Virus record (IMG/VR): IMGVR_UViG_3300029288_000100
Coordinates: 46,099 to 110,098 of that record
Length of the DNA: 64,000 nt
Strand: one strand, 5' to 3'
From: a virus
Taxonomy: Duplodnaviria; Caudoviricetes
In this document: positions 36,016-53,732 of the stretch, piece by piece
How positions within the stretch are numbered: the stretch's first letter is position 1
Layout of the letters: each line of letters begins with the position of its first letter
Translations under genes and position numbers: made by a program
The notes under the pieces: model-generated
Told to the model about the DNA's origin: nothing
The model's input: only the letters and a program-made list of their open reading frames with translations
The model's database searches: none

Positions 36016-36702
36016 TTATGGCGTCCGCCGGAGTTCAGGCAGGGCCCGGCGGATGCTGCTCGCGGAGATTGCAGCGGACACGCTCGCGGACCCGCGTACA
36101 ACGATCCCAACCAGTCGCCCACGGCGGTCGACAAGCGGCGCCCCGCTCCAGCCGGGCTCGAGCGGGTGCCCGATGAGCGTCACCGAGTGGTCCGGGGTAT
36201 ACGAGACGACGGACGCGACTGCGGCACCGAACGTGTCTTGCGGCGCACCGACCAGGAGCACTGGCTCACCGTAGGCGGCGTCATCTGAGGCGAGCGGTAA
36301 CCAGTCGGGTGTTCCACTCCCCTCATCAAGCCGCAGGAGTGCCAGGTCACGTGTCACATCCTCGCGCAGGGGACCCTGGGCAGATGCCATCCCGGAGAGC
36401 GACTTGACCACACGTGCCCAGTGCCTCGAACCGTTGTGCAGCTCGATGGTCAGTCCACCACCACCCTTCAGCGCGTGCCCCACCGTGAGTATCTCCCGGC
36501 TCGAGATGAACACCCCACAGCCGACCGCCCCACCTGGAACCCATCGAGCTGGACCTTCACGGAGGGCCACCGTGGCCCTCCGGGCGATTTCGGCCATCTC
36601 CTGTGTCACCGGTGCCCGGTGACACGCCGGCAGCAACCACGCGATCGTGAGGATCAGTGTCAGTTGGGTGCGCATCAGACCAGGTCCTCTCATGCCCGAC
36701 AC
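36016..36702 (-). CDS. Trypsin-like serine protease, probable lipoprotein
   Basis: Triad motifs LTVGH, DLALL, PGWSGAP; lipobox LLPAC. Confidence 0.85.
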   Translation of the reverse strand: MSGMRGPGLMRTQLTLILTIAWLLPACHRAPVTQEMAEIARRATVALREGPARWVPGGAVGCGVFISSREILTVGHALKGGGGLTIELHNGSRHWARVVKSLSGMASAQGPLREDVTRDLALLRLDEGSGTPDWLPLASDDAAYGEPVLLVGAPQDTFGAAVASVVSYTPDHSVTLIGHPLEPGWSGAPLVDRRGRLVGIVVRGSASVSAAISASSIRRALPELRRTP

Positions 36703-39106: not shown

Positions 39107-40687
39107 CTACTCCTCGAGCGTCAGGGAGGCCGCGCCCCAGGTCAGCAGATTGGCCTGGTCCATCTGACTGTGGACGATCAGGTCCCCGAGGTGCGCGTTG
39201 TAATCCGCCCAGAGCTCGGCGACGAGGGTGGTCAGTGAGGCGAGGTCGGCGGCGTCCGCGGCAGCGACCTCGTGCACGGTGTCGTCCTGCATGTGAACGT
39301 CGGCAGTCCCGGGGTCTGCCGCGGCGACCGCGTTCACGTTGTCGGGCGCGCCATGGACCGCGGGGGGACCACCTTCGAGCACTCGGTGCGCCTCGTACTG
39401 CGCCTTGAGGTCGATGCAGAGTGCGGCGACCTCAAGGAGGTTGACGCAGATTGGCTCAGTGACGACGTCCGTTTCGTCGACCGCCCCGTGCACCCCGCCG
39501 TCCGTCAGGACGCGGTGCGCCTCGTACTTCTCGCGGATCTGGTTCGCGAGCGTCACCGCGGTCCCGATGTCCGCAGCGTCCGCCGCGTCCACCACGTTGA
39601 CGCCGTCGGCCGCCCCGTGCACCCCACCCTCGAGCACGCGGTGTGCGTTGTAGTCATCCTTCATCTCCGTGAGGAGGGCGCAGCACTCCTCGAGCAGCGA
39701 GTCCTCGAGCCGGTGGAGATTGAACTGCGTCTTGATGTCATTGGCGAGGTCCTGCGCGGTCGCCAGGTCCACTGCAGTCGCCGCGGTCACCGCGTTAGCG
39801 TTGTCCGGGTGCGCGTGTACGCCCGGGGTCAACACCCGGTGCATCTCGTACAACACCTTGAGTCGGTTCAGCAGATCGACCTGTGAAGGAAAGTCGTTGG
39901 CTGGATCGACCGCAGCGATGACCGAGACGAAGTCGTCTGAGGCCGCGGTCACAGGGAGCAAGCGGCGCGCGCCCGCCGGGAGGTAGGTCGACCCAGCGAC
40001 GCCCCGCTCGGCCGCGACGATCGCGTCCCCCTGCTTGAACCACAGCGCCCGGTCCGCGACCAGCTCCCAGAGCCCCTCGGCGAGCTGCACGGAACGAACC
40101 GCCATCGAGGCGACGCCCAGCACCTGCCCACCCGTCCCGAGCTTGACCCCCGCGAAGCGCCGCCCGAGCGCGAGCAGAGTGGCCTCAGTCGCGAAGTTCT
40201 CCGCGGAGAGGGAAGCCAGGCTGCCGACCATCGAGAGGAGGTAGGTGAGCACCTCGACGGTCCGGTCCGCGTCGTTCCCCTCATGCTTCGCGTCCCCCGC
40301 CACGAGGACGTCGACCGATGTTGGATTTCCCTCCACCGCGTGGACACGGAGGAGAACAACCCCATCTCCGACGACCAGCGCGAAGCTCCCGTTGTCCGCG
40401 AGCGGCGGCGTGATGTAGCCGGTCGGCACGTACCTCCGCTGCAGCGCGCCCGCGCCATCGCGGTAGCTCGCGAGCTTGAGCTGCTGGAGAGTGACGGTCG
40501 GCGCCGCCCCACCTGCGAGCCGCACGAACCCGGTGATCGTCCGCCAGCCGGAGCAGTTGAGCGCGAGAGCCGGGTCGAGGTCGGCTAGCACCGCGGTGTC
40601 GGGCACGACGGGTGCCCCGACCAGCCTGCGGTGGTAGCGGTACTCCGGTCTGGGGGCGAGAACGTTGTCGTGGCGAGTCGCTTCCAT
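39107..40687 (-). CDS. Probable virion protein with His-containing repeats
   Basis: Repeats of Y(E/N)AHRVL..GVHG..D..N.V.AADA; start MEATRHD at 40687. Confidence 0.75.
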   Translation of the reverse strand: MEATRHDNVLAPRPEYRYHRRLVGAPVVPDTAVLADLDPALALNCSGWRTITGFVRLAGGAAPTVTLQQLKLASYRDGAGALQRRYVPTGYITPPLADNGSFALVVGDGVVLLRVHAVEGNPTSVDVLVAGDAKHEGNDADRTVEVLTYLLSMVGSLASLSAENFATEATLLALGRRFAGVKLGTGGQVLGVASMAVRSVQLAEGLWELVADRALWFKQGDAIVAAERGVAGSTYLPAGARRLLPVTAASDDFVSVIAAVDPANDFPSQVDLLNRLKVLYEMHRVLTPGVHAHPDNANAVTAATAVDLATAQDLANDIKTQFNLHRLEDSLLEECCALLTEMKDDYNAHRVLEGGVHGAADGVNVVDAADAADIGTAVTLANQIREKYEAHRVLTDGGVHGAVDETDVVTEPICVNLLEVAALCIDLKAQYEAHRVLEGGPPAVHGAPDNVNAVAAADPGTADVHMQDDTVHEVAAADAADLASLTTLVAELWADYNAHLGDLIVHSQMDQANLLTWGAASLTLEE

Positions 40688-40771
40688 GGGTGGAACCTCC
40701 ACCCGCACGCTATCCGCGCCGATGGGACGTCGCCGAGCAGAATGAGCACGTCGCGCTGGATACAGGTGGAC

Positions 40772-41542
40772 ATGCCGAAGAAAGCCAAGGACCTGGACCT
40801 GAAGCTGAACGAGGGAGCGCGGGCCCGCGCCGAGCTGGTGGCGCGCGAAGGCCCCCAGGGGGTGGGGGAGGAGATGTCCCGCCAGAAACGGGACGTGGCG
40901 CAGTACCGCGCGGGCCTCGCCCTGCTCTGGGATGATGGGCGCATCCTCGCGGAGACCGGGTGGAGCGCCCAGAAGCTCTCCGCTATCCGAGAGCTGGTCA
41001 GCCAGCTCGACGAGCAGGTCGCAAAGGGGACGGACACCGCGCGTGTCTGGGCGGAGTACCGGGAGCAGCAGTTCCAGTGTGCGCGCGAGCTCGAGGACCT
41101 CGCCGCCATCTTCCGCGGGTCGAGCCAGTTCAACGCGCTCGTCGCCGCGGTGAAGGCGCGCTCGGACATCCTGACCGGGCTCCTCAAGGCCGGGCAGGAC
41201 CTGGGCGTCATCAACCGCGCGAGCAAGAAGATCGAGATCCGCGGCAAGGTGGACGTGAATCGCCTCTCGGTTGAAGAGCTCCGCGTGCACCTCCGGCTGG
41301 AGCTCCAGGAGCTGGAGTCGATGTTGAAGCTCCCGGACGAGCGCAAGCCCCACAAGTTGCTCTCGCGCAGCCCGGCAGACGCCGTCCTGAACCGCATCCT
41401 GAGCGGCGCGGGGAAGTCGCGGGTGATTGAGGCAGAGGCGGAAGCGGTGGGGGAGGTGGACTCGGAGCCTGACCGGGATAGTGAACCTGCCCCGCGGGAG
41501 CCGCGCGTGCGCCGGCTGGCGGAGGACGAGGACGAAAGTTAG
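40772..41542 (+). CDS. Helical phage protein, possible terminase small subunit
   Basis: Good GC3 bias, helical, KKIEIRGKVDV..LSVEEL tail resembles TerS; opposite strand to the module. Confidence 0.55.
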   Translation: MPKKAKDLDLKLNEGARARAELVAREGPQGVGEEMSRQKRDVAQYRAGLALLWDDGRILAETGWSAQKLSAIRELVSQLDEQVAKGTDTARVWAEYREQQFQCARELEDLAAIFRGSSQFNALVAAVKARSDILTGLLKAGQDLGVINRASKKIEIRGKVDVNRLSVEELRVHLRLELQELESMLKLPDERKPHKLLSRSPADAVLNRILSGAGKSRVIEAEAEAVGEVDSEPDRDSEPAPREPRVRRLAEDEDES

Positions 41543-41742
41543 CCGCCCTCGTCTGCGCCCGGGCCACGCTGCGGATTCCACTCGGCGAGGTCCTCTGCCT
41601 TCACCAGCCAAGACCGCCCGACCTGGAATGCTGGCAGCTTTCCGTCCTGCACCGCCTGGAAGACCGCGATCCGGGAACACCCCTTCAGCTCTGCGACCTC
41701 CGGGAGGGTGTAGAGCTCTTTCTTGATCCGCTTCTTGGGCAT
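41539..41742 (-). CDS. HTH_17 / excisionase-like DNA-binding protein
   Basis: LYTLPEVAELKGCSRIAVFQAVQDGKLPAFQVGRSWLVKAEDL. Confidence 0.85.
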   Translation of the reverse strand: MPKKRIKKELYTLPEVAELKGCSRIAVFQAVQDGKLPAFQVGRSWLVKAEDLAEWNPQRGPGADEGG

Positions 41743-41748
41743 GACCAT

Positions 41749-41777
41749 AGCTTAACCCCCGTCAAGGAATGACGCAA
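41749..41777 (-). promoter_or_regulatory. Sigma-70-like promoter (TTGCGT-N17-TAAGCT) with degenerate operator CTTAACCCCCGTCAAG; probably leaderless
   Basis: 17-nt spacing; ATG begins 6 nt after the -10 box. Confidence 0.65.
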
Positions 41778-42133
41778 CAGTTCACCGGCGGATCCAGCTC
41801 CAGGTCATCCTCCCGGGCTGTGATCCGCCGAACGCCGGGGACGCACCGGCTCGAGGTCGCCACGAGCTCGCCGGCCAGGACCACGCCGATCTGCGTCGAG
41901 GCCGCCTCCAGGTCCGCGAACCCGAGCCCGTTGTGGGTCATCGTGCAGGCGTTCGGGTGCGCGGGGTCAATCGCGAACCAGGGCCAGAGCGCTGTCGGGT
42001 GGCCGCAGTGACGCAGAACCCACCCGCTCGTGTGGCGCCACTCCGCCGCGCACTTCGACCACGGATGGGGGTCGACTCTGATCCAACCGAGGTGCGCCAT
42101 CCGCTTGTGGCTGATGGGTGGGCGGCGGGTCAC
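41762..42133 (-). CDS. Hypothetical phage protein
   Basis: GTGA overlap; WRHTSGWVLRHCGHPTALWPW. Confidence 0.6.
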   Translation of the reverse strand: MTRRPPISHKRMAHLGWIRVDPHPWSKCAAEWRHTSGWVLRHCGHPTALWPWFAIDPAHPNACTMTHNGLGFADLEAASTQIGVVLAGELVATSSRCVPGVRRITAREDDLELDPPVNCCVIP

Positions 42134-42348
42134 GGCCGCCCCACCAGCGCGAGCAGCACCCGGGCCTGAGCGCGGGTCAGCTTCATCCGGATGTCCACCG
42201 CCGCAGCAGGAACGATCGCAACATCGAGCGACAGGCTCCACTCAGGCCGGCTACGCCCCCTGGCTGAGCACCAGAGCCCCATGGCGGGGGCGATGTCCCA
42301 GCAGCGGATGCCGCAGTCGCGGTAGCTCGGGCGAAGGTGCTCGGTCAT
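42130..42348 (-). CDS. Hypothetical protein
   Basis: Coupled overlaps on both sides. Confidence 0.5.
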   Translation of the reverse strand: MTEHLRPSYRDCGIRCWDIAPAMGLWCSARGRSRPEWSLSLDVAIVPAAAVDIRMKLTRAQARVLLALVGRP

Positions 42349-42689
42349 CGCCGTGCCTCTGTGTCCCGGTCCAGGGAGGGCTCCGCGGCCGGCTTGGCCA
42401 GCACGGCGTCGCAGAGCATCATCGCGCGCTGGTAGTGCTGCACGTGCTCATCACTCGCGTGACTGCGCAGGATCCCGAAGGCGGCCACAAGCTGGTGGCG
42501 CGCGGCGGTAAGCGCCTCGGTCAGCCGCGCCAGCTCCTCCAGCACTGCTGACTCCCCGGCGCAAGCGGACTCGATGGCAGTAGCCATCTTGGCTCTACCG
42601 AGGTCGTACCCGTAGGCGTCGCGCCTGTCCGCCTCGGCTTCACATCGGGCGCGACAGTCGTTGCACTGATCCAGGTGTGTGCAGCGCAT
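42345..42689 (-). CDS. Hypothetical Cys-containing protein
   Basis: GGAGGTG RBS; coupled overlap. Confidence 0.55.
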   Translation of the reverse strand: MRCTHLDQCNDCRARCEAEADRRDAYGYDLGRAKMATAIESACAGESAVLEELARLTEALTAARHQLVAAFGILRSHASDEHVQHYQRAMMLCDAVLAKPAAEPSLDRDTEARR

Positions 42690-42952
42690 CAGACCACCTC
42701 CTCGTCAAGGAGCTCGGCCTCCGGGTCGAGCTCACCGTACTCCAGCCGGATGCGGAACGACTCCAGCTCCTCCCGCATCCGGTGAAGCACGTGCAACTGG
42801 AGTTGCAGCTCCTTCCAGAGATCCCCCTGTTCCGGCCCCCCGCGGCGCTTCGCATCGCTTTGGCGCCTCCGGAGGTCCGCGACCCACCACCACTGGCGCG
42901 GGATCTCGCGCTCCAGGTCGGCGATCTCCGCCTCCAGCTCCCGCTTCGTCAC
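42689..42952 (-). CDS. Hypothetical coiled-coil protein
   Basis: GTGA overlap with the DUF4942 stop. Confidence 0.55.
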   Translation of the reverse strand: MTKRELEAEIADLEREIPRQWWWVADLRRRQSDAKRRGGPEQGDLWKELQLQLHVLHRMREELESFRIRLEYGELDPEAELLDEEVV

Positions 42953-43782
42953 GCGCGCCCCCTGTCCTCCGCGGGAGGGAGGGCCCCTGGATGGTGCTTC
43001 GCCACGATCTCGTTCAGTCGGTCGACCAGGTCCGGCCGCAGAAAGGTCAGATGCCCATTGCTGTTCTTGAAGCACCGGATGGAGATCAGGTCCGCAATCG
43101 CCACCGGCTCAACCGGGAACCGGGTGTCGAAGGTGATCACCTCCCGGAGCGCGTTGTAGGCGCCCTGCCGGTGATCGGGCTCGGGCCTGCCGTCGAGGAC
43201 CGACATCACGCGGATCAGGTCGTCGAGCCCGTTGCAGCCCGCCAAGCTTGGCCCAGTGTGATACTTCTGCCCGCCGCTGCCCCAGACCTCCACGATGCGC
43301 CGCAGGACAATCCGCTTACCGAAGAGGCGCGGGTTGTTGGTCTTGTAGTCCCAGCTCAGGTGACGAAAGACCTCCACCACCCCGCGCTCGAACATCTCCC
43401 GCCGGGCGGCGAAGAGCTCCTTGAAGGTTTCCTCGATGTTCTCCTGGGTAAGCGCCGGCACCCGGCGCTCGTAGATGTCTTTGGTCCACTGCTCGCGCGC
43501 TTTGGCGTCCATGAAGGTCCTCAGGCCGCTCTTGTTCATGAGGAAGTCCCAGGCCGTCGCGTCCACCCGCTTGACCAGCGCCTCGACATCACCCGGGAGG
43601 TAGGCGTGCACCCGCTGGCACTGCAGACTTGGCACCGCGTCATCTGACCCGAAGGCCGCCTCGCTCAACTCGCCCACCTCGATGAGCAGTGTAGCGATCT
43701 GGCGTAGCCGCTCTGCAATCGCGTTGCGCTGCGCCAGCAGATTGCTGATGGAGACGGACGGCACCAAGTCGGTCGCGTGCAT
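42949..43782 (-). CDS. DUF4942 domain protein
   Basis: AWDFLMNKSGLRTFMDAKAREQW, MFERGVVEVFRHLSWDYKTN, CFKNSNGHLTF. Confidence 0.88.
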   Translation of the reverse strand: MHATDLVPSVSISNLLAQRNAIAERLRQIATLLIEVGELSEAAFGSDDAVPSLQCQRVHAYLPGDVEALVKRVDATAWDFLMNKSGLRTFMDAKAREQWTKDIYERRVPALTQENIEETFKELFAARREMFERGVVEVFRHLSWDYKTNNPRLFGKRIVLRRIVEVWGSGGQKYHTGPSLAGCNGLDDLIRVMSVLDGRPEPDHRQGAYNALREVITFDTRFPVEPVAIADLISIRCFKNSNGHLTFLRPDLVDRLNEIVAKHHPGALPPAEDRGRA

Positions 43783-43791
43783 GCGTTCACC

Positions 43792-44685
43792 TCATGCCTT
43801 CTTCAGCCCGCAGTCGAGGAGGTGCTGGGCCAGCTTCTCTCGTACCTCGAGGTTCTGGGTCAGCCACTGGCAGGCGGCGGCCCGACCCTGGCCGAGCTGC
43901 GTCTCGTTGAGCGCGTACCAGGAGCCGCTCTTCTTGATGACGCCCGCCTCGAGGCCGAGGTCCACTATCTCGGCCTCCCGGTGCACGCCCTTACCGTAGA
44001 CAATGTCGAACTCAGCCTCGCAGAAGGGCGGGGCGAGCTTGTTCTTGACCACCTTGACCAGTGTGCGGTTTCCGATCACCTGGTCTCCCTGCTTGATGGC
44101 GTCGATGCACCGGATGTCCATGCGCACCGAGGCGTAGAACTTGAGCGCAGTGCACACTGCAATCGAGCCGTATGTGACACCGATTTTCTGTCGCGTCTGG
44201 CGGATGAAGAGGATGCTCGTGCCCGTGCGGAAGGCAGCGCCGGTGAGCTTGCGCATCGCCTGGCTCATCAGCCGCGCCCGCAGCCCCATATGGGTGTCGC
44301 CCATGTCGCCCTCGAGCTCGGCCTTGGGCACCAGCGCCGCGACCGAGTCCACGACCACGATGTCGACCGCGTTCGACTTCACCAGCATATCGGTGATCTC
44401 GAGCGCCTGCTCGCCGTGGTCCGGCTGAGACAACAAGAGCTCCTCGACGCGGACGCCCAGCTTGTGGGCGTAGCCCACGTCGAGCGCGTGCTCGGCGTCG
44501 ATGAAGCCGCACACCCCGCCGCGCCGCTGCACCTCGGCGATGGCGTGGAGGGCCAGGGTGGTCTTGCCCGAGGACTCGGGGCCGTAGACCTCGATCAGCC
44601 GGCCGCGGGGGAGCCCCCCGGTGCCCAGCGCCAGGTCCAGGGTGAGCGACCCTGAGGGGAAGGTCTCTACTGCCGTCGCGTTCAT
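43792..44685 (-). CDS. recA: RecA homolog, N-terminally truncated with altered loop L2
   Basis: [50 protein letters not shown]. Confidence 0.93.
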
Positions 44686-44699
44686 GCGTTCACCTCGTC

Positions 44700-45365
44700 T
44701 CAAGGCAGAAGGTGCAGGGCGGCATCCCGGAGGTACCGCTCCTCCCCATCCACCGCCACGTGGTAGACCCAGGTCACCGCTCGGTGCGGGCACCCGGCCG
44801 CGAAGAGCGCGCGCTCTGCCACCCCGCGGAGCCAGTCCCTTTGAACCGAGCGCTCGACGTCCGCGCGCTCGATCCGCCCCCACTCGCCTGGCCGCCTCTC
44901 GAGGTCCGCGGTTGTGACGCAGCGGAAGCACTCTCCCACCCAGCACGTCTCCCAGCCGCCGCGCCCGAGCTTGTCCACCGTCCAGGTCGCCGCCGGCGGA
45001 GTCAACCCCTGCAGCGCGGTCCGGGCCACCTCCGCCAGTTCGCGAGCTCGTTCCTCTACGTGCGCCGCCATCAGGCGCTTGGTCTCTGCGCGCGCCTCGC
45101 GCTCCGCCGCCTTGACCGCCGGGAAGTCGACCCCTGGGAGAAGCCCCTCAGCGAGCAACTTGGGGCCGCAGCCAGACCCCACCGTCAGGGAGCCCCCACC
45201 CGGTCGCTCGAGCAGCGTCCAGACCACCGCGTGCCGCCTCCCGCACCGCACGCACTCAGGGAGCTCGCACGTGTCGACCGGTAGCCGCTTCCCGGAGTCC
45301 CAGTCAATCGGGCGGACGTCGTGGATCTTGAGCAGCTCGTAGGTCTTGCCAGCGTCGAGCGTCAT
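44700..45365 (-). CDS. Zn-finger-like phage protein
   Basis: [13 protein letters not shown] motif. Confidence 0.7.
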
Positions 45366-45628
45366 CAGCGCACATCCTCACGCCGGTTGCTGTGCAGAGT
45401 CACAAGGCGCTCTGCGGCCGCTTCCGGAGTCCGATAGATGATGCAACTGTTAGCAGGCTCGAAGCCGGCGTTGGGGTAGAGCTGGCAGCAAGGAACCAGC
45501 GGGCGCCAGCCACCCTCAGCCCTACGAACCGCACCGACGGTCTTTCCGGCAATGCTGACGCGACCGAAGTTCTGGCTGAGCATTTCAACCTTCATCTGAG
45601 CCTCCTTCGTCTGCGTCTTGTTGTTCAT
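45365..45628 (-). CDS. Small early phage protein
   Basis: Follows the promoter; internal AAGGAGG before the second Met. Confidence 0.6.
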   Translation of the reverse strand: MNNKTQTKEAQMKVEMLSQNFGRVSIAGKTVGAVRRAEGGWRPLVPCCQLYPNAGFEPANSCIIYRTPEAAAERLVTLHSNRREDVR

Positions 45629-45634
45629 GAATCT

Positions 45635-45663
45635 ATCTTAACCGTGGTTAAGCAAAAAGTCAA
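45635..45663 (-). promoter_or_regulatory. Promoter TTGACT-N17-TAAGAT with operator CTTAACCGTGGTTAAG (45637-45652)
   Basis: Near-consensus hexamers in an AT-rich gap; near-identical copy at 46675-46703. Confidence 0.85.
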
Positions 45664-45998
45664 TACCCCAAAAGGAACATCAGCTGCAAATCTCGCTGAG
45701 CGTCCTCTTTCCGCCACCGCTCGACGTCCGCATCGCTCGGGAGAACGACGGGAAGGTCCTCAGGTTCATAGATGGTGGGGTCGATCCCTTCCTCCTCGAG
45801 TCGCACTAGCCACCGCGCTGCCTCGAACGGGTCGTGAGCCAGGACCACAGGACCTCCCTGAAGGTCCAGAACACACCAGGTTGGAGTCTCCGGGGTGACC
45901 ACCGCAGGGGTGTACCGGCCAGCGGAGAACCTCTCCCCGAGGTAGCTCCCCCTGGTCACGAGCTGCACCAGGACTTGCTCGATATCGTCGGAGATCAT
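45660..45998 (-). CDS. Hypothetical phage protein
   Basis: ATGA overlap with the upstream ORF. Confidence 0.6.
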   Translation of the reverse strand: MISDDIEQVLVQLVTRGSYLGERFSAGRYTPAVVTPETPTWCVLDLQGGPVVLAHDPFEAARWLVRLEEEGIDPTIYEPEDLPVVLPSDADVERWRKEDAQRDLQLMFLLGY

Positions 45999-46390
45999 GC
46001 CGCCACCCGCCCGGCCTCGCGGAGCACCTTCTCGAGCTGCCAGTGGATCTCCACGTGCTTGTAGAAGTTGCACGAGAAGTAGTCCACCGACGAGTCCGAG
46101 TCGTCCCGCCGGTAGGCGTCGACCAGCCCCTCGAGCTGCTTGAGGAGCGCGCAGGTCTCGGGCGCCTTCGCGTGCGGGCACTCCGGGTCGCCGGCCAACA
46201 CCGGGAACCCAGCCGGGAGCGCGGTCACGTTGACGGACAGGGAGCACCCCATGGAGAACCTCGAGATCGTCACGCTCGCCTTGAGGCCGGCGGGGAGCTC
46301 GCCCGCCCGCACTGCCTCCCTGATATCCACGCGGAGCGCCTTGGCGATCTCCGCAACGTCCTGACCCTGGATGTACTTGGAACCGTTCAC
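45995..46390 (-). CDS. LPD29-like domain protein
   Basis: IAKALR..LP.GLKASVTISRFS.G.SL.V and DDSDSSVDYF..NFY pattern. Confidence 0.6.
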   Translation of the reverse strand: MNGSKYIQGQDVAEIAKALRVDIREAVRAGELPAGLKASVTISRFSMGCSLSVNVTALPAGFPVLAGDPECPHAKAPETCALLKQLEGLVDAYRRDDSDSSVDYFSCNFYKHVEIHWQLEKVLREAGRVAA

Positions 46391-46668
46391 TGGGCACCTC
46401 CCTGCACGATCGCGTAAGCGAGCTCGAAGCCGAGGTCGAACTGCTTGCTCTGCTTGATGAAGGCCGTGAACACCTTGGCGTGGCGGGGGAGGGCCCGACG
46501 CAGCTGCGCGTAGGTGACGATGTTGACGTACGCGAAGGCGTCGACGTCGATCCCCACCTCCGCCGCCCACTCCCGAGCAACCTGGGACAGAGCCTCGTAC
46601 CCGTTGCAAGCCGCGATCTTCTTCATCAGCTGCGTCATCTTCGGCTCCTCGGTTCGTGTCGTGTTCAT
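46387..46668 (-). CDS. Small early phage protein
   Basis: Directly follows the promoter; GAGGAG before the second Met. Confidence 0.65.
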   Translation of the reverse strand: MNTTRTEEPKMTQLMKKIAACNGYEALSQVAREWAAEVGIDVDAFAYVNIVTYAQLRRALPRHAKVFTAFIKQSKQFDLGFELAYAIVQGGAQ

Positions 46669-46674
46669 GTTCTT

Positions 46675-46703
46675 ATCTTAACCGCGGTTAAGCACAAAGT
46701 CAA
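46675..46703 (-). promoter_or_regulatory. Promoter TTGACT-N17-TAAGAT with perfect 16-bp palindrome CTTAACCGCGGTTAAG (46677-46692)
   Basis: Read directly from the sequence. Confidence 0.85.
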
Positions 46704-46742
46704 TCCCCCAGCGAACGATTTTCACCGCGGGCTCGATTATCG

Positions 46743-46771
46743 TTGCCTCCTATCTTAACCTGTGTTAAGCT
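46743..46771 (+). promoter_or_regulatory. Divergent promoter TTGCCT-N17-TAAGCT with operator CTTAACCTGTGTTAAG (46754-46769)
   Basis: Same operator in the same position relative to the -10 box. Confidence 0.75.
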
Positions 46772-46794
46772 GTATCTATCAAATGGAGGTCGCC

Positions 46795-47196
46795 ATGACC
46801 CAGCTCGAGACGCTCCGCACCGCCTACCTGATCGCCCTCGACGCCCTGATCGCCCGCTACCCCGGGCAGGAAGTGAATCGCCGAAGCCACCTGGCGTGGC
46901 TCGAGCGCGCGGAGCTCGGGACCGTGACCCGGCGCATCCGGACGAAGGGCGGCTACACGGACATCTCCCGCGGCGCGACGGTCCTCTTTGTCCCGGAGGA
47001 CCCGGAGCTCCTCGCCGCGGAGCGGGTGTCGCGTCCGGCAGGGTATGAGGTCTTCGCGCCGCGCGCGGATGGAAATCTGGGGATCACTCTCGTGGGTCAG
47101 GGGACTGTCCGCCCCATCTGCCGGACCTGCGGCGGGTCCGGGCTGGTCCACCCCCACCCGACGGCGCTCATCGCGGTGAGCTGCCCGGACTGCTAG
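46795..47196 (+). CDS. Phage protein with C-terminal Zn-ribbon
   Basis: GGAGGT RBS; CRTCGGSG..CPDC. Confidence 0.7.
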   Translation: MTQLETLRTAYLIALDALIARYPGQEVNRRSHLAWLERAELGTVTRRIRTKGGYTDISRGATVLFVPEDPELLAAERVSRPAGYEVFAPRADGNLGITLVGQGTVRPICRTCGGSGLVHPHPTALIAVSCPDC

Positions 47197-47244
47197 GAGA
47201 TTGACATCAGTGAGGGATGGAGTGGAGAGGAGATGGCGAGCGGA

Positions 47245-47712
47245 TCAGCGCTCGCGGTCTGGAGCGGCGGAAGCTGGGGTGGGCTCCTCAGTGGTCGTCT
47301 CACCCGGCACCCGCGCCTCTTCCCCGCGGCTCGAGGAGGCCCAGAACCTCTCAGCCGCGTCGACCAGTGCCACCCACCCACCGTGACCGAGCGCCCCCAG
47401 CCGACGCTGCAGATCTGCCCCATCCACCCCCCACTTGGTGTCCAGGCGGTTGAGGGAGATCGCGTCGGCGATCTCCAGAGCAGCCCAGTGTGCCGGGGTG
47501 TCGTGCATCCAGCAGCCGTTGAGCGCGTCCATCACGAGTCGCCACTCGTCGACCGAGAGCTGCGGCAGGTCGCGCCGACAAACCTCGGCGTAGCGACGCA
47601 GACAGCGCCGGATCACCTCGCTCCGGTCCGCGAAGTTGCTCTCTCGCTCCTCCAGGATCGTCCACTCGGGGTCAAGTAGACGGATGCTCGTCGGTTTGCG
47701 GTCGTTGGCCAT
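47245..47712 (-). CDS. Ribbon-helix-helix domain regulator
   Basis: N-terminal PTSIRL..RSEVIRRCLRRY RHH pattern plus a helical C-terminal domain. Confidence 0.7.
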   Translation of the reverse strand: MANDRKPTSIRLLDPEWTILEERESNFADRSEVIRRCLRRYAEVCRRDLPQLSVDEWRLVMDALNGCWMHDTPAHWAALEIADAISLNRLDTKWGVDGADLQRRLGALGHGGWVALVDAAERFWASSSRGEEARVPGETTTEEPTPASAAPDRER

Positions 47713-48020
47713 CAGCGCACCTCCCCGTTCTGGACGGCTCTCTCGACCCGCTCCCAGTAGGCCCGGTCCTCGGTCTCACCGACCACCTCCAACGCGGTAT
47801 GCTCCGCTGGGTCACTGTAGATCTTCGTGCCGTCCTGCCACCTGTAATTGGCAGCCTCTTTTTCGGTGAGGACGTCGCTCTGCCGGCGCGCGGACAGCGT
47901 GCCCTGGCTCTCGCCCAGCTCGGACAGGTGGGCGTCCAACCAGGCCTCGCCCTCGGAACGAGTGGCGACGTGGCGCCACGAGAACAGCGACGATCCTGGG
48001 AGTCCGAATCTGGCGATCAT
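47712..48020 (-). CDS. Hypothetical phage protein
   Basis: GGAGGTG RBS; TGATG coupling. Confidence 0.65.
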   Translation of the reverse strand: MIARFGLPGSSLFSWRHVATRSEGEAWLDAHLSELGESQGTLSARRQSDVLTEKEAANYRWQDGTKIYSDPAEHTALEVVGETEDRAYWERVERAVQNGEVR

Positions 48021-48420: not shown

Positions 48421-49059
48421 TTACTCCCAGGCCTCAGAGAACTCCTGGTCCGCGAACGCCTCCGCGAGCCCTGACACCTGCTTCAACCGCAGCACCTCGT
48501 CCGGGTCCATCCCGAGCTCGCGCGCGATCCACACGTCGTCGTGGTTCCTCCGCGAGAGCTCCACCACGATCTCGCTCATCGCGGCCACCTGGTGCTGCCC
48601 GCGCGCCCGGTTGTGCCGGATGGTCGAAGCGATGCGGTCGCTCCGGTCCCCACGCTCGCGGTTGATGAGCGTGACCGGCAACCGGCCGTGCACCCGCTTG
48701 CGCACCACCCTGGAGTTCCGCCCGACGAGGTTGCGGTGGAACCCGTCCACCACCACGTGTTCGCCCGGGTCCTCCTCAAACGTGACGATCGGCTGTGTGT
48801 AGCCGTCTGAGACGATGCTGAGCTCGAGCAGCTTCATCTCGGGCGGGGCTACGCGGTTCGGGTTGTAGTCGTTGGCGGTCACCTGATCCGCGGGCACCCA
48901 GATTACGCAGTCCACAGGTTCAGTCGCGAACGGGCTGACCGCGTGCAGGGCGCGGCGCACCCCGTTCAACGCCTCGATCCTGGCATCGCCCTCGAGACGG
49001 GCGATCTCCGCGACCAGCTCCGCCGTCTTGCGCCTCACGGCAGCGTCGTCATGTTCCAT
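48421..49059 (-). CDS. ibrB: IbrB/YbdM-like ParB/Srx-domain protein
   Basis: EPVDCVIWVP, ANDYNPNRVAPPEMKLL, DGYTQPIV, VVDGFHR, ASTIRHNRARG, LGMDPDEVLRLKQ. Confidence 0.9.
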   Translation of the reverse strand: MEHDDAAVRRKTAELVAEIARLEGDARIEALNGVRRALHAVSPFATEPVDCVIWVPADQVTANDYNPNRVAPPEMKLLELSIVSDGYTQPIVTFEEDPGEHVVVDGFHRNLVGRNSRVVRKRVHGRLPVTLINRERGDRSDRIASTIRHNRARGQHQVAAMSEIVVELSRRNHDDVWIARELGMDPDEVLRLKQVSGLAEAFADQEFSEAWE

Positions 49060-50261
49060 TGCTCCCTCCGGCGCCGCATGAGCTCGAGGTACCGCTTGTA
49101 AGAGTCCGGGCTCTTGTGTGGCGCGAAGTGAAAGTCCTTGCACCAGTAGTCGTTGCGCAGAAGCATCTTGCACACTCGCCGCCACGTGGGAGCCGCGTGC
49201 GCCGCCTCGACCTTCCGGTCCGCCTCGTCGGGGATCTCGGTCACCCCACGGTGGTCAGCCCACCACTTGAGCCAGATCGCGATCTTGTTCTCGAAGTGCT
49301 CCCGCATCCGCGGCGGCATGCTCCCGAGGAGCTGCTGCGCGAACGACTTCCAGGTGTGTCCCTCCGGGCAGGACACCTTGATTCGCCCGAGGATGTTCCC
49401 TGCCTCGCGCGCGTACCGCGCCCCCTGGTTTGCGCCGTTCACCCGCGCGACGACGCGCGCCCACGTCTCCGGCTCGATGATGTGAAACAGCCACAGCCCC
49501 TTCCGCTGGTCGTCTCCGTAGGGCTGGCAGATCCGCTGTTGGTGGATCGATAGTCCGGCCTGGTGCATGCGATCGTAGAGCCGGTTGTACGGCCTCTTCT
49601 CCTGCCCGAAGTAGATCCAGATGTCCCGCGTTCGCCAGTCATAGATCGGGTAGGCGTTGAAGACGTTCGGCGTGATCCGCGTCGTCCACTGCAGCCCGTC
49701 CAGTGTCTCCTTCGACGTGCTCTTGACCGTGCGGTAGCGGTTCAGGCTCTCGTCTGCCCGGATGCCCACCAAACACGCGGTGCGCTCGCCCTGCGCGTAC
49801 CACTCGCCGAAGGCCGGGACGAACTCCTCGAACTCCATCCCACGTCGAAAGAACGGGAAGAACGCCTCATCCACCACGCTGCGCGGGTCCGGCTCCCGGA
49901 TCCAGTCTGCTCTGCGGTTCGGATCCCAGCACAGCCATTGCGGCTCAAACTGGCTGACCGCGTTCCGCAGCGACAGCGGCAGCGCGACCCAGAAGAGATC
50001 AACCAGGTCCCGGTAGAGGTCGCAGCACCGGCGGACGTGATCGATCGTCAGGCGGTACTGCCCCTCGAGGTCCACGATCAGGACGCCGAAGCGGCGGCCG
50101 CGCCGGCGCGCCTCATCCGCCGTCAGGTGCAGGAGCACCGACGAGTCCTTCCCACCCGAGAAGCTCACGTATATCCGCTCGAAATGGTCGAAGACCGTCG
50201 CCACCCGCCGACGCGCCGCGGTCAACACGTCGATACCCAGAGGCTTCTTGTTCCCAGTCAT
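49035..50261 (-). CDS. ibrA: IbrA/YbdN-like PAPS-reductase-family protein with DUF3440
   Basis: SFSGGKDS, GIRADESLNR, PIYDW, QRICQPYGDDQRKGL, WRRVCKMLLRNDYWC. Confidence 0.92.
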   Translation of the reverse strand: MTGNKKPLGIDVLTAARRRVATVFDHFERIYVSFSGGKDSSVLLHLTADEARRRGRRFGVLIVDLEGQYRLTIDHVRRCCDLYRDLVDLFWVALPLSLRNAVSQFEPQWLCWDPNRRADWIREPDPRSVVDEAFFPFFRRGMEFEEFVPAFGEWYAQGERTACLVGIRADESLNRYRTVKSTSKETLDGLQWTTRITPNVFNAYPIYDWRTRDIWIYFGQEKRPYNRLYDRMHQAGLSIHQQRICQPYGDDQRKGLWLFHIIEPETWARVVARVNGANQGARYAREAGNILGRIKVSCPEGHTWKSFAQQLLGSMPPRMREHFENKIAIWLKWWADHRGVTEIPDEADRKVEAAHAAPTWRRVCKMLLRNDYWCKDFHFAPHKSPDSYKRYLELMRRRREQWNMTTLP

Positions 50262-50656
50262 CGCCGCCACTCTAGGTGCGTGGTCCCGAGCTTGAAGGTC
50301 CGCCGCGGCGCGAACCCAAGCTTGAGAAATAGCCGACTGCGGAAGGCGAACACGTCCACCACGTCAGCCGCTCCACGCGCCACATCGAAGCGAACCCGCA
50401 CGAGCTCCTCCCCCAGCCCCCGACCGCGGAATTCGGGCAGGACGAAGCACCCCCCTAAGCGCGCACGGAGCGGCAACCTCCGCACGTAACCGCACGCGAC
50501 GACCCGCCGCTCGTCGAAGGCGGCGAACCACGTCACCTCCGGGTCGCTCGATGCAACGCTCTCCAGCGGCGGGAGGTCGCGCAGAGTCACCCCCTCCCGT
50601 CGCGCGGCTCGAGCGAGCGACCGAACCGCCCCAAAGCTGACTTCAGTCACGTGCAC
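50258..50656 (-). CDS. GNAT family acetyltransferase
   Basis: FVLPEFRGRGLG acetyl-CoA motif; LFLKLGF. Confidence 0.85.
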   Translation of the reverse strand: MHVTEVSFGAVRSLARAARREGVTLRDLPPLESVASSDPEVTWFAAFDERRVVACGYVRRLPLRARLGGCFVLPEFRGRGLGEELVRVRFDVARGAADVVDVFAFRSRLFLKLGFAPRRTFKLGTTHLEWRR

Positions 50657-51372
50657 CGCGGAACCTCGGGGTAGTAGCGCCGCTCCCACTGCCCACGTCC
50701 GCACCCGGTCCCGCGCTCGTCGCCGATTCCGTCGACGCGGATCCGCGCGCGGTCCCAGAACCCACCCTCGCTCATCGCGTAGGCCGGGTGCACCGGGAGG
50801 TCGTACTTGCGGAGGTAGGCGAAGACGAGCGCCGCGTCCCACCAGACGATCGGCGCGCATGAGCTCGGCGAACTGCACCCGAAGCGTCGGGCGCGCCGTC
50901 TACGGCGCCCGGACTCCCGCGCCCGCAGCCCGAGAATCCGCCGACCCAGCTCGTCGGCCTCGCGGAAGAACAGCCGACAGTCCTGCTCCCAGGTCAGGTC
51001 TCGCCACCCCACACCGGCTGGCAGGCATGTGTCCGTGACGACGATCTCCTGGTAGTCGACAGGAAACCTCCGCAGAAAAACATCCCGGACCGCGGGGCAG
51101 TCGGGGTTGTGCGAGGGGTCGTAGCGGACCCAAACGAAGGGCACCCGCAGACCCGCGCGCACCGCGAGGTGCGCGACGACGACGGAGTCCTTGCCCCAGC
51201 TCACCGCAACGAAGCACGTTCCGTCGAGCCCCGCGAAGCGTTGAAGCTCCGCGAGCGCCGCCTCCTCCCTCCGCGCAAGGTGTTCCGAACCGGCCAGCAC
51301 CTGATCAGTCTGCTCCAGGCGAGCCCAGACCTCAAGGTCGATCGCGGTGTGCCGTGGGCTCGGGATCAGCAC
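50647..51372 (-). CDS. CysH-like (PAPS reductase family) protein of the type IV-B locus
   Basis: VAVSWGKDS PP-loop, ILGLRARES, PIVWW..VFAYL..LPVHPAY; no C-terminal ECG(L/I)H catalytic motif. Confidence 0.88.
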   Translation of the reverse strand: MLIPSPRHTAIDLEVWARLEQTDQVLAGSEHLARREEAALAELQRFAGLDGTCFVAVSWGKDSVVVAHLAVRAGLRVPFVWVRYDPSHNPDCPAVRDVFLRRFPVDYQEIVVTDTCLPAGVGWRDLTWEQDCRLFFREADELGRRILGLRARESGRRRRRARRFGCSSPSSCAPIVWWDAALVFAYLRKYDLPVHPAYAMSEGGFWDRARIRVDGIGDERGTGCGRGQWERRYYPEVPRCT

Positions 51373-51623
51373 CGGTCGTGTCCCTTCAGCACCGTCAGGA
51401 TCTGTGGTGCCCCGCGGTCGTTCTCGGCCACCCGGAACCGCAGTCGACGCGGCCTCCGCCCGCGGTAGAGCCAGACGCCGGGCTCGAGCTCCTTCACCCG
51501 GCGCGCGGTCTCGGACTCGCGGATCAGCGCCGCCAGCGCCAGTTCGTAGGTGAGCTGTGGATCCACCCGCTCGACGTACCGCCGGACCGCGTGCGGCGTG
51601 ACGAACCAGCGCCCGGCGATCAC
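51366..51623 (-). CDS. Small protein with RelE/DUF4258-like RNase pattern
   Basis: VTPHAVRRYVER and C-terminal QILTVL; overlaps both neighbours. Confidence 0.6.
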   Translation of the reverse strand: MIAGRWFVTPHAVRRYVERVDPQLTYELALAALIRESETARRVKELEPGVWLYRGRRPRRLRFRVAENDRGAPQILTVLKGHDRC

Positions 51624-52261
51624 AGGAACGTCTCCGGAACAGCGCGCCAGTCGGACCCCTCCGCGCGCCAGTACGGGTGCATGATCCGGCAGAAACGGAG
51701 GTACAGCCAGTCGGGGGCCAAATCGCGCGGGAGCGGACGCGCCGGCGCCTCGTCACAGGTGAACACGGATCGGTCCTCCTCGATCTCGACCACCTCCCAT
51801 CTGGCGACCCACCCGTACCCCGACGCCCGCTTCGCCCCGAGCGCGAGCACGTGTCGAAGAAGCGCGCGAACCTCCGCGACGTCGCCAAATCCCCACCACG
51901 TCAACCGCATGCCCGCCGGCAGCGCAAGGCGCAGCGGAACCCAGAACGCCTTGTAGCGCCCGGACGTCGGGAGCTTCGCGGCGGAGGTCAGAAGCACCAG
52001 GTCACGCAGGTCGGGAAGCTTGCGCGTCCAGCGCCGGGCCTGGAACTCCTGCACGACGAGGTGCGCCTCCGAGGCGTGGTAGAAGCCCTGCAGGTGTAGC
52101 TGAAGCGGGATCGGGAGGTCCACCGCGTCGTGGTACTCAAGCTCCGGCGGTGGGAACCTGCGCAGCCCCGCAACCACCGCCGCGAGGAGCGCGTCAAGCG
52201 CAATCGGGTGGGTCGCGACCAACGCTTGCGCGAGCGTCGCCCTGACAACGAACGGAGTCAC
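51620..52261 (-). CDS. csf3: Type IV CRISPR Csf3 (Cas5-like RAMP)
   Basis: IALDALLA, PIPL..FYHAS, GRYKA, GDVAEVRALL, G-loop LGAKRASGYGWV..W. Confidence 0.85.
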   Translation of the reverse strand: MTPFVVRATLAQALVATHPIALDALLAAVVAGLRRFPPPELEYHDAVDLPIPLQLHLQGFYHASEAHLVVQEFQARRWTRKLPDLRDLVLLTSAAKLPTSGRYKAFWVPLRLALPAGMRLTWWGFGDVAEVRALLRHVLALGAKRASGYGWVARWEVVEIEEDRSVFTCDEAPARPLPRDLAPDWLYLRFCRIMHPYWRAEGSDWRAVPETFL

Positions 52262-53334
52262 CGGATCGCCGTCAGCCACGCGAGGAGGTCGGTGCGGTTC
52301 ATGACCACGTGGTCGAGGTACGGCCCCGCGAACTGCCGCGCTGTTGCCTCGATCCGAGCATCCTGATCCAGCGCGCGAAGCCCCTCGGCGAGGGAGCTCG
52401 TCTCCCCCGACGCATGGACTGCCCGCAACGCGACAGCGCCGTGCCCTGTCGCCCCCTTGGCCCCGAGCTGTCCACGCGCCCCAAGCGCGAGGAGGGCACA
52501 GACGAGGGCTGAATGTTCGAGCGGCGTCATCAGGACGCCGCCCACCTGCCAGAGCCAGCGCGCGCCGGCGCACACCGCCTCATAGGCGAAGATCATCTGG
52601 TTGCTGTCCGTGGCGCCCTCCTCCGAGGAGAGGCTCTGCTCCCACGCATCACGGTCCTCGGGGCGAAGCGCGTGCCGCGCAAGCAGTCCACGCCGAGCAT
52701 CATGGCGGGTCGCCTGCCGGCGCTCTCGGTACTCCTCGGCCGGCTGGAGGTCGCCGGCGAGCTCGGTCAGCGGAGGACAGAGCAGCCGCACCCGCCACGC
52801 GTTCTGCGCACAGAGCAGGATCGCGTACGCCACCTGGAGCTTGCCCGGGATGAGGAGCGACCCGAGCCCGCCCCCGAAGAGACCCAGGTAGGGGAAGAGC
52901 TCGAGCGCGCGGCGGTACCCGGCAACATCCAGCGTCTCCGCCTGCCGCCCGAGGGACCCACCCGAGAGCAGGAAGTGCTGGGCCGCCACCGGCAGGGAGC
53001 CGAGCTCAAGGTCCAGCGTCCGGAGCGTCAGGTGCGCCAAGGCCTCGCGGAGCGCGTGGCGGAGGGAGTTGCCCGTCAGGCAGGGCACGTCCTGCGGCAA
53101 ACCTTGCGGGTCATCCGGATCGACCACCCGCTCCGTCATGAGGAGCGCCTCATTCCCGACAGTCCCGGAGGAATGCACGATCGGGGTCAGGCTGGTGATC
53201 AGCACGTCGTAACGCACCGTCATCAGCTCGCCGTAGCGGGTCGGAGCCGCCACCGCGCCGGGCGACAGGTTCGCCAGCGTTTCGCAACCATTGGGATTCT
53301 CGGCTTCCACGTCGGCCACTCTCCTCCTCTTCAT
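52258..53334 (-). CDS. csf2: Type IV CRISPR Csf2 (Cas7-like RAMP); alternative start at 53223
   Basis: SLTPIVH, VPCLTGNSLRHALR, LLSGGSL, FPYLGLFGG..IPGKLQV, QMIFAYE, LGAKGATGHG. Confidence 0.9.
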   Translation of the reverse strand: MKRRRVADVEAENPNGCETLANLSPGAVAAPTRYGELMTVRYDVLITSLTPIVHSSGTVGNEALLMTERVVDPDDPQGLPQDVPCLTGNSLRHALREALAHLTLRTLDLELGSLPVAAQHFLLSGGSLGRQAETLDVAGYRRALELFPYLGLFGGGLGSLLIPGKLQVAYAILLCAQNAWRVRLLCPPLTELAGDLQPAEEYRERRQATRHDARRGLLARHALRPEDRDAWEQSLSSEEGATDSNQMIFAYEAVCAGARWLWQVGGVLMTPLEHSALVCALLALGARGQLGAKGATGHGAVALRAVHASGETSSLAEGLRALDQDARIEATARQFAGPYLDHVVMNRTDLLAWLTAIR

Positions 53335-53732
53335 GGAACGTCCCTCTCCTCGATCTGGCGGAAGGCGGACTTGACGGACTCCCACCGCACGCGCGCCAGC
53401 GCCGCCACGCCGCAGATCTCCTGCGGCAGGAGCTGGAGTGCCCGACGCTCGGATGTCTCCGGGTCGGGCGGCAGTGCGCGGACTGTCTTCCGCAGCGCAC
53501 CCCAAGCCGTCGTGACGGACGTCTTGGACGGCGCACCAGTCGTTGGGACCTGCAGCGCGCGCAGGACGAAGGTCAGCCAGCGCTCGAGTCGCGTGCTCTG
53601 GCGCGCCCCTGCCACCATAACGTTCGGGATCCGCTCCCACATCGTCCGGCGCTCCCCGGGGTAGGCGCGAACCAGGGCGACAGTCATCTCCGCCCATGTT
53701 GTGAGGAGTCGTTCCCGCTGTTCATCCGTCAA
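53331..53732 (-). CDS. Putative Cas11-like small subunit
   Basis: 133-aa all-helical ORF between csf1 and csf2, the Cas11 position in type IV-B loci. Confidence 0.6.
   Translation of the reverse strand: MTDEQRERLLTTWAEMTVALVRAYPGERRTMWERIPNVMVAGARQSTRLERWLTFVLRALQVPTTGAPSKTSVTTAWGALRKTVRALPPDPETSERRALQLLPQEICGVAALARVRWESVKSAFRQIEERDVP

Follow-up and report, generated by a model that had tools for sequence, protein, structure and literature searches.

A RecA Fragment Apparently Captured by a Phage Lacks the N-Terminal Arm and the Distal Half of DNA-Binding Loop L2: A Candidate Decoy of Host RecA

A truncated recA gene, here called recA', is carried on the minus strand at 43792..44685 of a 64,000-nucleotide stretch of phage DNA and encodes a host-type RecA core and C-terminal domain in which the elements for donating a subunit contact and for binding DNA are lost or altered, and those for accepting a neighboring subunit are preserved. 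The stretch, referred to below as the window, comes from an IMG/VR virus record of an uncultured phage (IMGVR_UViG_3300029288_000100; 110,098 bp), of which it forms the right-hand 64 kb; the record is rated complete by CheckV and encodes a terminase and further phage genes. The proposal that the recA' protein acts as an acceptor-only, non-DNA-binding decoy, which traps or poisons host RecA, is in our judgment evenly poised. Below we set out the sequence evidence on which it is based, and the competing explanations.

Results

The recA' Protein Comprises the RecA Core and C-Terminal Domain

The recA' open reading frame (ORF) is uninterrupted over 297 residues, which correspond to residues ~36–331 only of Escherichia coli RecA. 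Its ATG at 44685 is preceded by a GAGGTG Shine-Dalgarno sequence 5 nt ahead, and the stop codon of the upstream gene (orf221) is 14 nt away. The protein scored 447 bits on TIGR02012 (cut-off 325.3), matching profile positions 31–319 of 321, and matched PF00154 (373 bits), PF21096 (64 bits), and phrog_97 (253 bits); the ImuA model gave 43 bits only, against a cut-off of 150. Searches of Pfam, NCBIfam, and PHROGs returned only RecA-superfamily and related P-loop ATPase models, and none of the known families of mobile-element RecA or SOS inhibitors (PsiB, RecX, DinI, Hex, and AriS). On these matches the protein is assigned as a true RecA by family, although we would not call it a recombinase, because two defining features of RecA fail, i.e. 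the N-terminal arm and a complete loop L2.

RecA chains in the PDB align with the recA' protein from their residue ~36–38 to ~323, with one gap, of 3 residues, in L2. The E. coli numbering used here was anchored on the Walker A motif GPESSGKT, which we take to be E. coli residues 66–73; phage residue i is E. coli i+31 through residue 179 and i+34 thereafter. Alignments to PDB RecA and to relatives show that the Walker A motif (44560..44583, minus strand) is intact, and that Walker B (VVVDS), E96, Q194, K248, and K250 are present. Loop L1, R169, K216, F217, R222, K245, and the C-terminal domain are also kept, and the β3 strand (LLLSQ, E. coli 114–118), the acceptor of a neighbor's arm, is unchanged. 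The N-terminal arm itself (helix A and strand β0, residues ~1–33) is absent, 34 residues being missing with respect to the relatives, as is the acidic C-terminal tail. A first-pass annotation of this DNA, made from its letters and ORFs, had placed the start of the protein ~30 residues into RecA and had described an open frame with intact Walker A and B motifs; both descriptions agree with the alignments, and the profile match begins at position 31. No separate fragment coding for an N-terminal arm was found anywhere in the 110-kb genome, and a split gene or an intein was rejected on this ground.

In an AlphaFold2 model of the recA' protein (mean predicted local distance difference test score [pLDDT] 85.6), the secondary-structure elements follow in RecA-like order. 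The pLDDT falls below 50 at residues 166–174, in L2, and means over blocks of ten residues dip to 52–70 across L1 and L2. Both loops are flexible in RecA itself.

recA' Derives from a Bacterial Chromosomal Gene

The nearest proteins in a set of 5.8 billion are full-length RecAs of 344–363 residues, 76–80% identical to the recA' protein, the nearest at 78–80%, and all metagenomic, followed at ~74% by RecAs from metagenome-assembled genomes of Deltaproteobacteria and Myxococcales. The genes of the nearest relatives lie in bacterial chromosomal settings, repeatedly directly downstream of comM (Mg-chelatase family). Four metagenomic contigs of this donor clade (L008, L091, L092, and L093) carry recA directly 3' of comM, which encodes a Mg-chelatase-family AAA+ protein. 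Because the nearest relatives are full-length chromosomal genes of this comM-recA type, recA' is by its sequence a captured host gene from a Myxococcota-like bacterium of that clade, and the capture suggested in the first-pass annotation is borne out both by these relatives and by a 22-bp duplication of phage sequence at the gene's borders (see below). A maximum-likelihood tree places the phage protein in a group with P0002, P0003, and P0011 (Shimodaira-Hasegawa-like approximate likelihood-ratio support 86). Its end branch measures 0.40, the values for P0002 and P0003 being 0.08–0.11 and the median 0.14. A scan of GTDB genomes gave a best identity of 65% among the matches listed, and the donor is not named from it.

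Comparison with the donor-clade chromosomal RecAs (P0002–P0010) separates what was inherited from what is peculiar to the phage copy. Over the core and C-terminal domain the two are 76–80% identical, and they share clade-specific residues, including those in the proximal half of L2, as well as the ATP site, L1, β3, K248/K250, and the fold of the C-terminal domain. The phage copy differs in the absence of the 34-residue arm and of a tail of 15–60 residues, in a distal L2 half that is replaced and shortened, in the substitutions N193R, R227C, G229D, R243L, and R256C, and in its position in a phage operon rather than downstream of comM.

The viral RecAs found are more distant. Known phage RecAs in INPHARED are at most 64% identical to the recA' protein and are all ordinary RecAs, and relatives in IMG/VR are at most 54% identical; those of the IMG/VR loci L003–L007 keep the N-terminal segment and the (T/P/S)GG end of L2. 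Ordinary phage RecA/UvsX recombinases (phrog_97; the mycobacteriophage cluster RecA-like proteins, L003–L007) are likewise RecA-family proteins encoded by phages but, unlike them, the phage copy has neither the arm nor the distal half of L2. In the 5.8-billion-protein set, IMG/VR, and JGI metagenomes, degenerate-pattern searches included, no sibling sharing this L2 or N terminus was found; there was no near DNA match to 40000–48000, and a terminase-based search retrieved no close relative of the phage. As judged from these comparisons, recA' is a lineage-specific capture in a phage that already had its own recombinase.

A Direct Repeat Marks the Insertion

A 22-bp direct repeat, with 21/22 bases identical and a spacing of 903 nt, flanks recA' (coding-strand sequence GAGGTGAACGCATG(C/A)ACGCGAC). 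The upstream copy (44675..44696; GAGGTGAACGCATGAACGCGAC in the minus-strand reading) supplies the ribosome-binding site (RBS), ATG, and codons 2–4 of recA', and the downstream copy (43772..43793) coincides with the RBS, ATG, and initial codons of the following gene, which encodes a DUF4942 protein and whose GAGGTG is overlapped by the recA' stop codon TGA. The first four residues of the recA' protein, MNAT, are phage-derived, and RecA sequence begins at ~A35/V37. The arrangement indicates that the start region of the DUF4942 gene was duplicated and reused as the start of recA'. Because the repeat flanks the fragment and copies the start region of the next gene (RBS, ATG, and first codons), the loss of arm and tail dates to the capture event itself; both cuts lie at domain borders. 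An empty-site comparison was attempted with two viral contigs that carry orf221 homologs, but neither has an adjacent DUF4942 gene and no pre-insertion site could be shown.

The stretch is held by one landfill metagenome, for which an independent Logan assembly was examined. A 53-kb Logan contig extends from the DUF4942 side into recA' up to 44052, a 19.7-kb contig extends from orf221 into recA' starting at 44559, and short contigs (44119–44329) cover a patch of altered codons in L2. All these contigs have 0 mismatches and a depth of 17–19x, the L2 patch included. They break only within the conserved recA core, where the recA genes of other organisms have k-mers in common; other runs (X2–X4) contain only recA cores of other organisms. 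An assembly chimera, in which a bacterial recA fragment was misjoined to a phage contig, might be suspected from the metagenomic derivation of the record and from these breaks, but is unlikely, to the point of being almost negligible. Both junctions lie inside the two long contigs of the independent assembly at equal depth, which also holds for the unique L2 patch, and the exact runs in the flanking repeat (7 and 14 nt) were judged too short to mislead an assembler. In addition, the fusion is in frame, and the phage L2 was found in no bacterial recA.

Loop L2 and Site II Carry Phage-Specific Changes

Conservation was judged against 119 relatives. In L2 the phage-specific changes are N193R, N206I, L207A, T208V, and T209C, together with the loss of T210-G211-G212; the donor-clade NLTTTGG is IAVC in the phage copy, and the loop is 3 residues shorter. 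The columns of T208–T210 and G211–G212 are conserved at 99–100% in the relatives, and it is this conserved T-T-T-G-G end that is missing. N193R (codon 162, AAC to CGC; 44200..44202, minus strand) falls in a column that is invariant in the relatives. I-A-V-C (codons 175–178; 44152-44163, minus strand) stands in place of the relatives' N-L-T-T and is followed by the loss of the 9 nt for T210-G211-G212, after which codon 179 (T213) again agrees with the clade consensus. The proximal half of the loop is intact with respect to Q194, R196, K198, I199, G200, Y203, and G204. The earlier description of L2 as rewritten is thus right for the distal half, which is changed and has lost 3 residues, but not for T-R-Q and V-T-Y-G-S, which are ancestral to the donor clade.

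The L2 patch, codons 165–179 (44149..44193, minus strand), has 7/15 codons ending in A or T, as compared with 26/298 gene-wide, and three of its A/T-ending codons are synonymous changes at conserved amino acids beside the rewritten residues. The rewritten codons also carry a 6-bp inverted repeat, GCAGTG-TG-CACTGC, which is weak on its own, with 2.4 such repeats per kb in this genome. The rewriting of L2 has the appearance of a single local event of mutation or repair. The genome contains no further copy of the patch from which it could have been templated, and targeting of L2 in the manner of a diversity-generating retroelement was rejected for that reason.

The basic residues of the secondary DNA-binding site (site II) we take to be R226, R227, R243, and K245, R227 and R243 presumably being two of its arginines. 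R226 and K245 are kept. R227C (codon 193; 44107..44109, minus strand) is accompanied by G229D two codons downstream, and R243L (codon 209; 44059..44061, minus strand) is shared with the bacterial relative P0004. These substitutions underlie the changes from DIRR to DIRC and from TRVKVVKNK to TLVKVVKNK that had been read from the sequence at first pass, and both strings are confirmed. The change R/K256C (codon 222; 44020..44022, minus strand) is one of ten found in 0/119 relatives (Q167R, N193R, N206I, L207A, T209C, R227C, G229D, R256C, P313L, and R326C). Of these, four lie in L2 (193, 206, 207, 209) and two at or beside site II (227, 229), and Q167R adjoins L1. Four cysteines are gained with respect to the relatives (T209C, R227C, R256C, and R326C), three of them by Arg to Cys replacement. 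The Arg to Cys gains are consistent with lost selection for positive charge.

Constraint Is Relaxed but Not Lost

Nonsynonymous and synonymous divergence (dN and dS) were estimated from a codon alignment with six relatives (P0003 and P0008 were left out) by the NG86 method with three-taxon subtraction, which is crude. The alignment and dN/dS comparison, proposed in the first-pass annotation as a check, gave for the phage branch a dS of 0.32–0.35, a dN of 0.10–0.11, and a ratio (ω) of ~0.31 (bootstrap 0.19–0.51, without L2), as compared with ω of 0.09–0.15 for sister branches; the phage branch is ~3–4 times longer than its sisters. By this measure, constraint on the phage branch appears ~threefold relaxed, but far from absent. 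A gene caller based on third-position GC content (GC3) was too noisy at this GC and was not used.

The positions of the changes are more telling than their rate. The phage copy shows 56 differences from the clade consensus, 5 of them in columns conserved at ≥95%. Outside L2, only 2/51 differences fall in the 114 columns conserved at ≥95%, versus 21.1 expected were they uniformly spread (binomial p ~1e-9), a count within the range of working bacterial RecAs; a rough estimate from counts is that a neutral excess of dN after capture would have given ~15 or more. Seven deviations at conserved columns were recorded, five in L2 plus R227C and A91G, the last of which is also tolerated in two bacterial relatives. 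When these deviations are counted as events, 3/4 are in DNA-binding sites, with a rough p of ~0.03 if ~1/5 of conserved columns are DNA-binding. The pattern read from the alignments is that DNA contact was lost selectively and that the fold, the ATP site, and the interfaces between subunits were preserved. Decay of the whole gene, the other option raised at first pass, is disfavored because of the ω of ~0.31 and the scarcity of changes at conserved columns outside L2.

recA' Lies in an Operator-Controlled Operon

A σ70-like promoter, TTGACT-17-TAAGAT (45635..45663, minus strand), carries a palindromic operator, CTTAACCGTGGTTAAG (45637-45652), that spans the spacer and the −10 box. It is followed by a ~30-nt leader, AAGGAGG and ATG, and then by a small ORF, orf221, recA', the DUF4942 gene, and further small genes, in that order. 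No terminator-like site was found between 41500 and 47500. Because the promoter carries an operator and no terminator-like site follows, recA' is assigned, from these signals, to a repressor-controlled operon. An identical promoter and operator design occurs at 46703-46675. Operator sites of the form CTTAAC-N4-GTTAAG are located at 45635-45663, 46675-46703, 46754-46769, and 41751-41766; three are perfect and one has a single mismatch, the chance expectation is 0, and two lie within the identical TTGACT-17-TAAGAT promoters. The repeated operator suggests a phage regulon under a repressor.

Upstream of recA', orf221 (44700..45365, minus strand) encodes a Cys-rich protein with no family match, the homologs of which, in two other viral contigs, are 44–50% identical. 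Both of these contigs are without a true recA, and one has a homolog of a UvsX-like gene of the phage. Downstream, the DUF4942 gene (methyltransferase-associated domain) occupies 42949..43782 on the minus strand. The UvsX-like gene lies outside the window (G000:C1:22520-23668 = L002:1204-2352, minus strand); it encodes a RecA-superfamily protein of 382 residues that matches phrog_97 (68 bits) and has a conserved counterpart in a related viral contig of 105 kb. This protein is probably the recombinase of the phage itself.

Also outside the window is a gene for a CI/LexA-like repressor with a helix-turn-helix and an S24 peptidase domain (G000:C1:33206-34018 = L101:1015-1827, plus strand). The catalytic Ser (GNSME) and Lys are present, and the usual Ala-Gly cleavage site is V-A-A-R; because of this replacement, the repressor may not be cleavable through RecA*. 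Elsewhere in the window, a co-directional block at 48421-53697 (minus strand) contains two genes of the 3'-phosphoadenosine 5'-phosphosulfate (PAPS) reductase fold, one with DUF3440, a GNAT acetyltransferase gene, and a weak match to DevR/Csa2 (Cas7-like). A gene for a trypsin-like serine peptidase (36016-36702, minus strand; PF13365, 63 bits) is positioned just upstream of the terminase large subunit gene (34422-35930).

Discussion

A Proposed Acceptor-Only Decoy

RecA filaments are numbered 5' to 3' along single-stranded DNA (ssDNA), the N-terminal extension of protomer n lying on the ATPase core of n−1, its 5' neighbor (PMC10085707), and the arm interface is formed by helix A and β0 packing on β3, residues 114–118 (PMC6237804). 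With this arm geometry, a subunit without an arm should be able to accept the arm of another, whether supplied by a free host monomer or met at a filament's 5' end; it would not dock normally at the growing 3' end. Δ33RecA (Mikawa 1995), as described in PMC6237804, polymerizes poorly, with multimers only at high concentration, and a non-polymerizing RecA monomer (arm removed, β3 mutated) neither binds ssDNA nor hydrolyzes ATP (PMC6237804). In recA+ cells, RecAs truncated at the N and C termini interfere with the wild-type gene (Horii 1992, as cited in PMC6472873).

We propose that a fragment of a host-type chromosomal recA inserted into the operator-controlled phage operon and was fused in frame to the duplicated RBS and start codon of the next gene, so yielding a RecA core and C-terminal domain without the helix A/β0 arm or acidic tail. 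After capture, the distal half of L2, including G211-G212, would have been lost and N193R, R227C, G229D, and R243L acquired at or beside DNA-contacting positions, with the ATP site, L1, the trans-acting K248/K250, the arm-accepting β3, and the C-terminal domain retained. Such a protein would be unable to nucleate on ssDNA or to donate an arm, yet able to accept the arm and ATP interface of host RecA.

Three modes of action, which are not mutually exclusive, can be envisaged for the decoy. It may titrate the arms of free host RecA monomers, which then could not add at the 3' growing end; it may cap the 5' end of filaments; or it may be held by its neighbors within a filament as a subunit without functional L2 or site II, such that DNA contact, LexA docking, and strand exchange would be broken. 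L2 residues 193–212 from three successive protomers provide much of the LexA docking surface (bioRxiv 10.1101/2023.10.30.564768), and it is for this reason that the third mode would block LexA docking. Host recombination and SOS would thereby be inhibited in a dominant-negative manner during expression of the operon, with the phage relying on its UvsX-like recombinase. A filament-capping inhibitor had been one of the two options of the first-pass annotation; inhibition is the better supported of the two, from the sequence of one lineage, whereas the capping geometry requires adjustment to the 5' end rather than the growing 3' end. The fuller proposal, that recA' is a natural virus-encoded inhibitor made from its own target, i.e. 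a captured recA cut down to an acceptor-only subunit that would shut down recombination and SOS in the host as the phage employs its own recombinase, is one that we advance tentatively, as a shade short of an even judgment.

Alternative Explanations

Several observations weigh against a selected decoy. The gene is a singleton, with no sibling in the protein and metagenome sets searched, and evidence of selection consequently derives from one lineage and is not measurable within a phage-borne lineage. The long branch covers time spent in the unsampled donor as well as in the phage, and dS is poorly estimated at a GC3 above 90%. The L2 rewrite, with its clustered A/T-ending codons, synonymous changes, and 6-bp inverted repeat, could be a single recent accident, and the p value for the concentration of events in DNA-binding sites is rough and depends on an assumed fraction of such sites. 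Open frames are cheap in DNA of 67% GC, the antisense frame of recA' being open for 292 residues, and related phages manage without recA'.

Several of these observations lend themselves to the main rival explanation, that recA' is a functionless passenger or dying gene, i.e. a product of illegitimate recombination that was truncated by accident, had its L2 disabled by one complex mutation, and is too young to have acquired stop codons or frameshifts. A recent insertion would fit the 21/22 identity of the flanking repeat, ω is threefold that of the sister branches, and the Arg to Cys gains (which, with T209C, make up the four new cysteines) are of the CGC-to-TGC kind that is typical of GC-rich DNA when change is unselected. 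However, away from the DNA-binding sites, conserved columns are hit as rarely as in working RecAs, well below the number estimated for neutral change, and in ~290 aligned codons there is no frameshift, the sole indel being in frame. Besides the L2 patch there are independent radical changes at DNA-contact positions, i.e. N193R (two base changes), R227C, G229D, and Q167R, which imply that appreciable time has passed since DNA binding ceased to matter, the rest of the protein staying intact meanwhile. The two truncation points coincide exactly with domain borders, and the RBS and ATG look functional. We regard a passenger as unlikely, if by no means fanciful.

The retained ATP site and subunit interfaces, and the presence of a phage recombinase, would also suit a positive accessory factor that, like the Rad51 paralogs of eukaryotes and archaea, which no longer act as recombinases, binds a filament end and stabilizes or remodels host RecA or UvsX-like filaments, so promoting recombination-dependent replication of the phage. 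The 5' end is the disassembly end of RecA filaments. By the geometry of PMC10085707 an armless subunit would sit at that end and could in principle stabilize the filament. Against this, the surfaces of the recA' protein appear host-type, because it is ~80% identical to host RecA and in a tblastn comparison matches the UvsX-like gene over only 72 residues at 28% identity; relatives keep the UvsX-like gene without recA'; no mediator-like partner is encoded nearby; and the effect of laboratory truncations of RecA is interference, not assistance (Horii 1992, via PMC6472873). A role of this kind is improbable. More improbable still is that the protein, its unusual L2 notwithstanding, continues to function as a recombinase or DNA-dependent ATPase. 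L1 is intact, as are the catalytic residues and the proximal half of L2, and a non-filament RecA dimer can form homologous joints (PMC6237804), but the arm is absent, N193 is replaced, two presumed site-II arginines are lost, and the nearly invariant T208–T210 and G211–G212 are gone.

Relation to Known Systems

If the recA' protein is a decoy, its closest parallels are laboratory truncated RecAs (Δ33RecA, the Δ1-29/30 crystal constructs, and npRecA [PMC6237804, PMC10085707], and the products of Horii 1992), which have nearly the same cut points as the phage copy (~36 and ~331 in the latter), polymerize poorly and, as cited in PMC6472873, interfere with the wild-type protein in recA+ cells. Unlike these constructs, the phage protein is natural and phage-borne, and would in addition have L2 and site II disabled; it is known here from its sequence. 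The proposed outcome, damping of RecA filament function and SOS, resembles that of the anti-RecA and anti-SOS proteins PsiB, RecX, DinI, phage 434 Hex, Listeria AriS, ICEBs1 factors, and GIL01 gp7 (PMC3564112, PMC9043618, PMC11841131, PMC4551915, PMC5766188). In contrast to these factors, the mechanism proposed for the phage protein is mimicry of a filament subunit. To our knowledge, none of them is derived from RecA itself. Rad51 paralogs, RadB, ImuA, and the BRC-repeat control of Rad51 provide examples of RecA-fold or interface mimics that act via the polymerization interface rather than DNA; Rad51 paralogs, RadB, and ImuA are old, diverged families, whereas the phage protein arose recently and still shares ~80% identity with a working RecA. 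No phage "RecA decoy" was described in the literature found.

Were recA' a dead passenger, it would still be a clean example of illegitimate capture, of little functional interest. If the decoy proposal is correct, the laboratory design of a RecA-poisoning truncation would have been reached by phage gene capture, joining the lines of work on anti-SOS functions of mobile elements and on truncated RecAs; the gene would be a dated case of moron acquisition with its insertion scar still visible, and it would show how the host's own repair protein can be made to work against itself, as a RecA and SOS blocker that is ready-made and host-specific.

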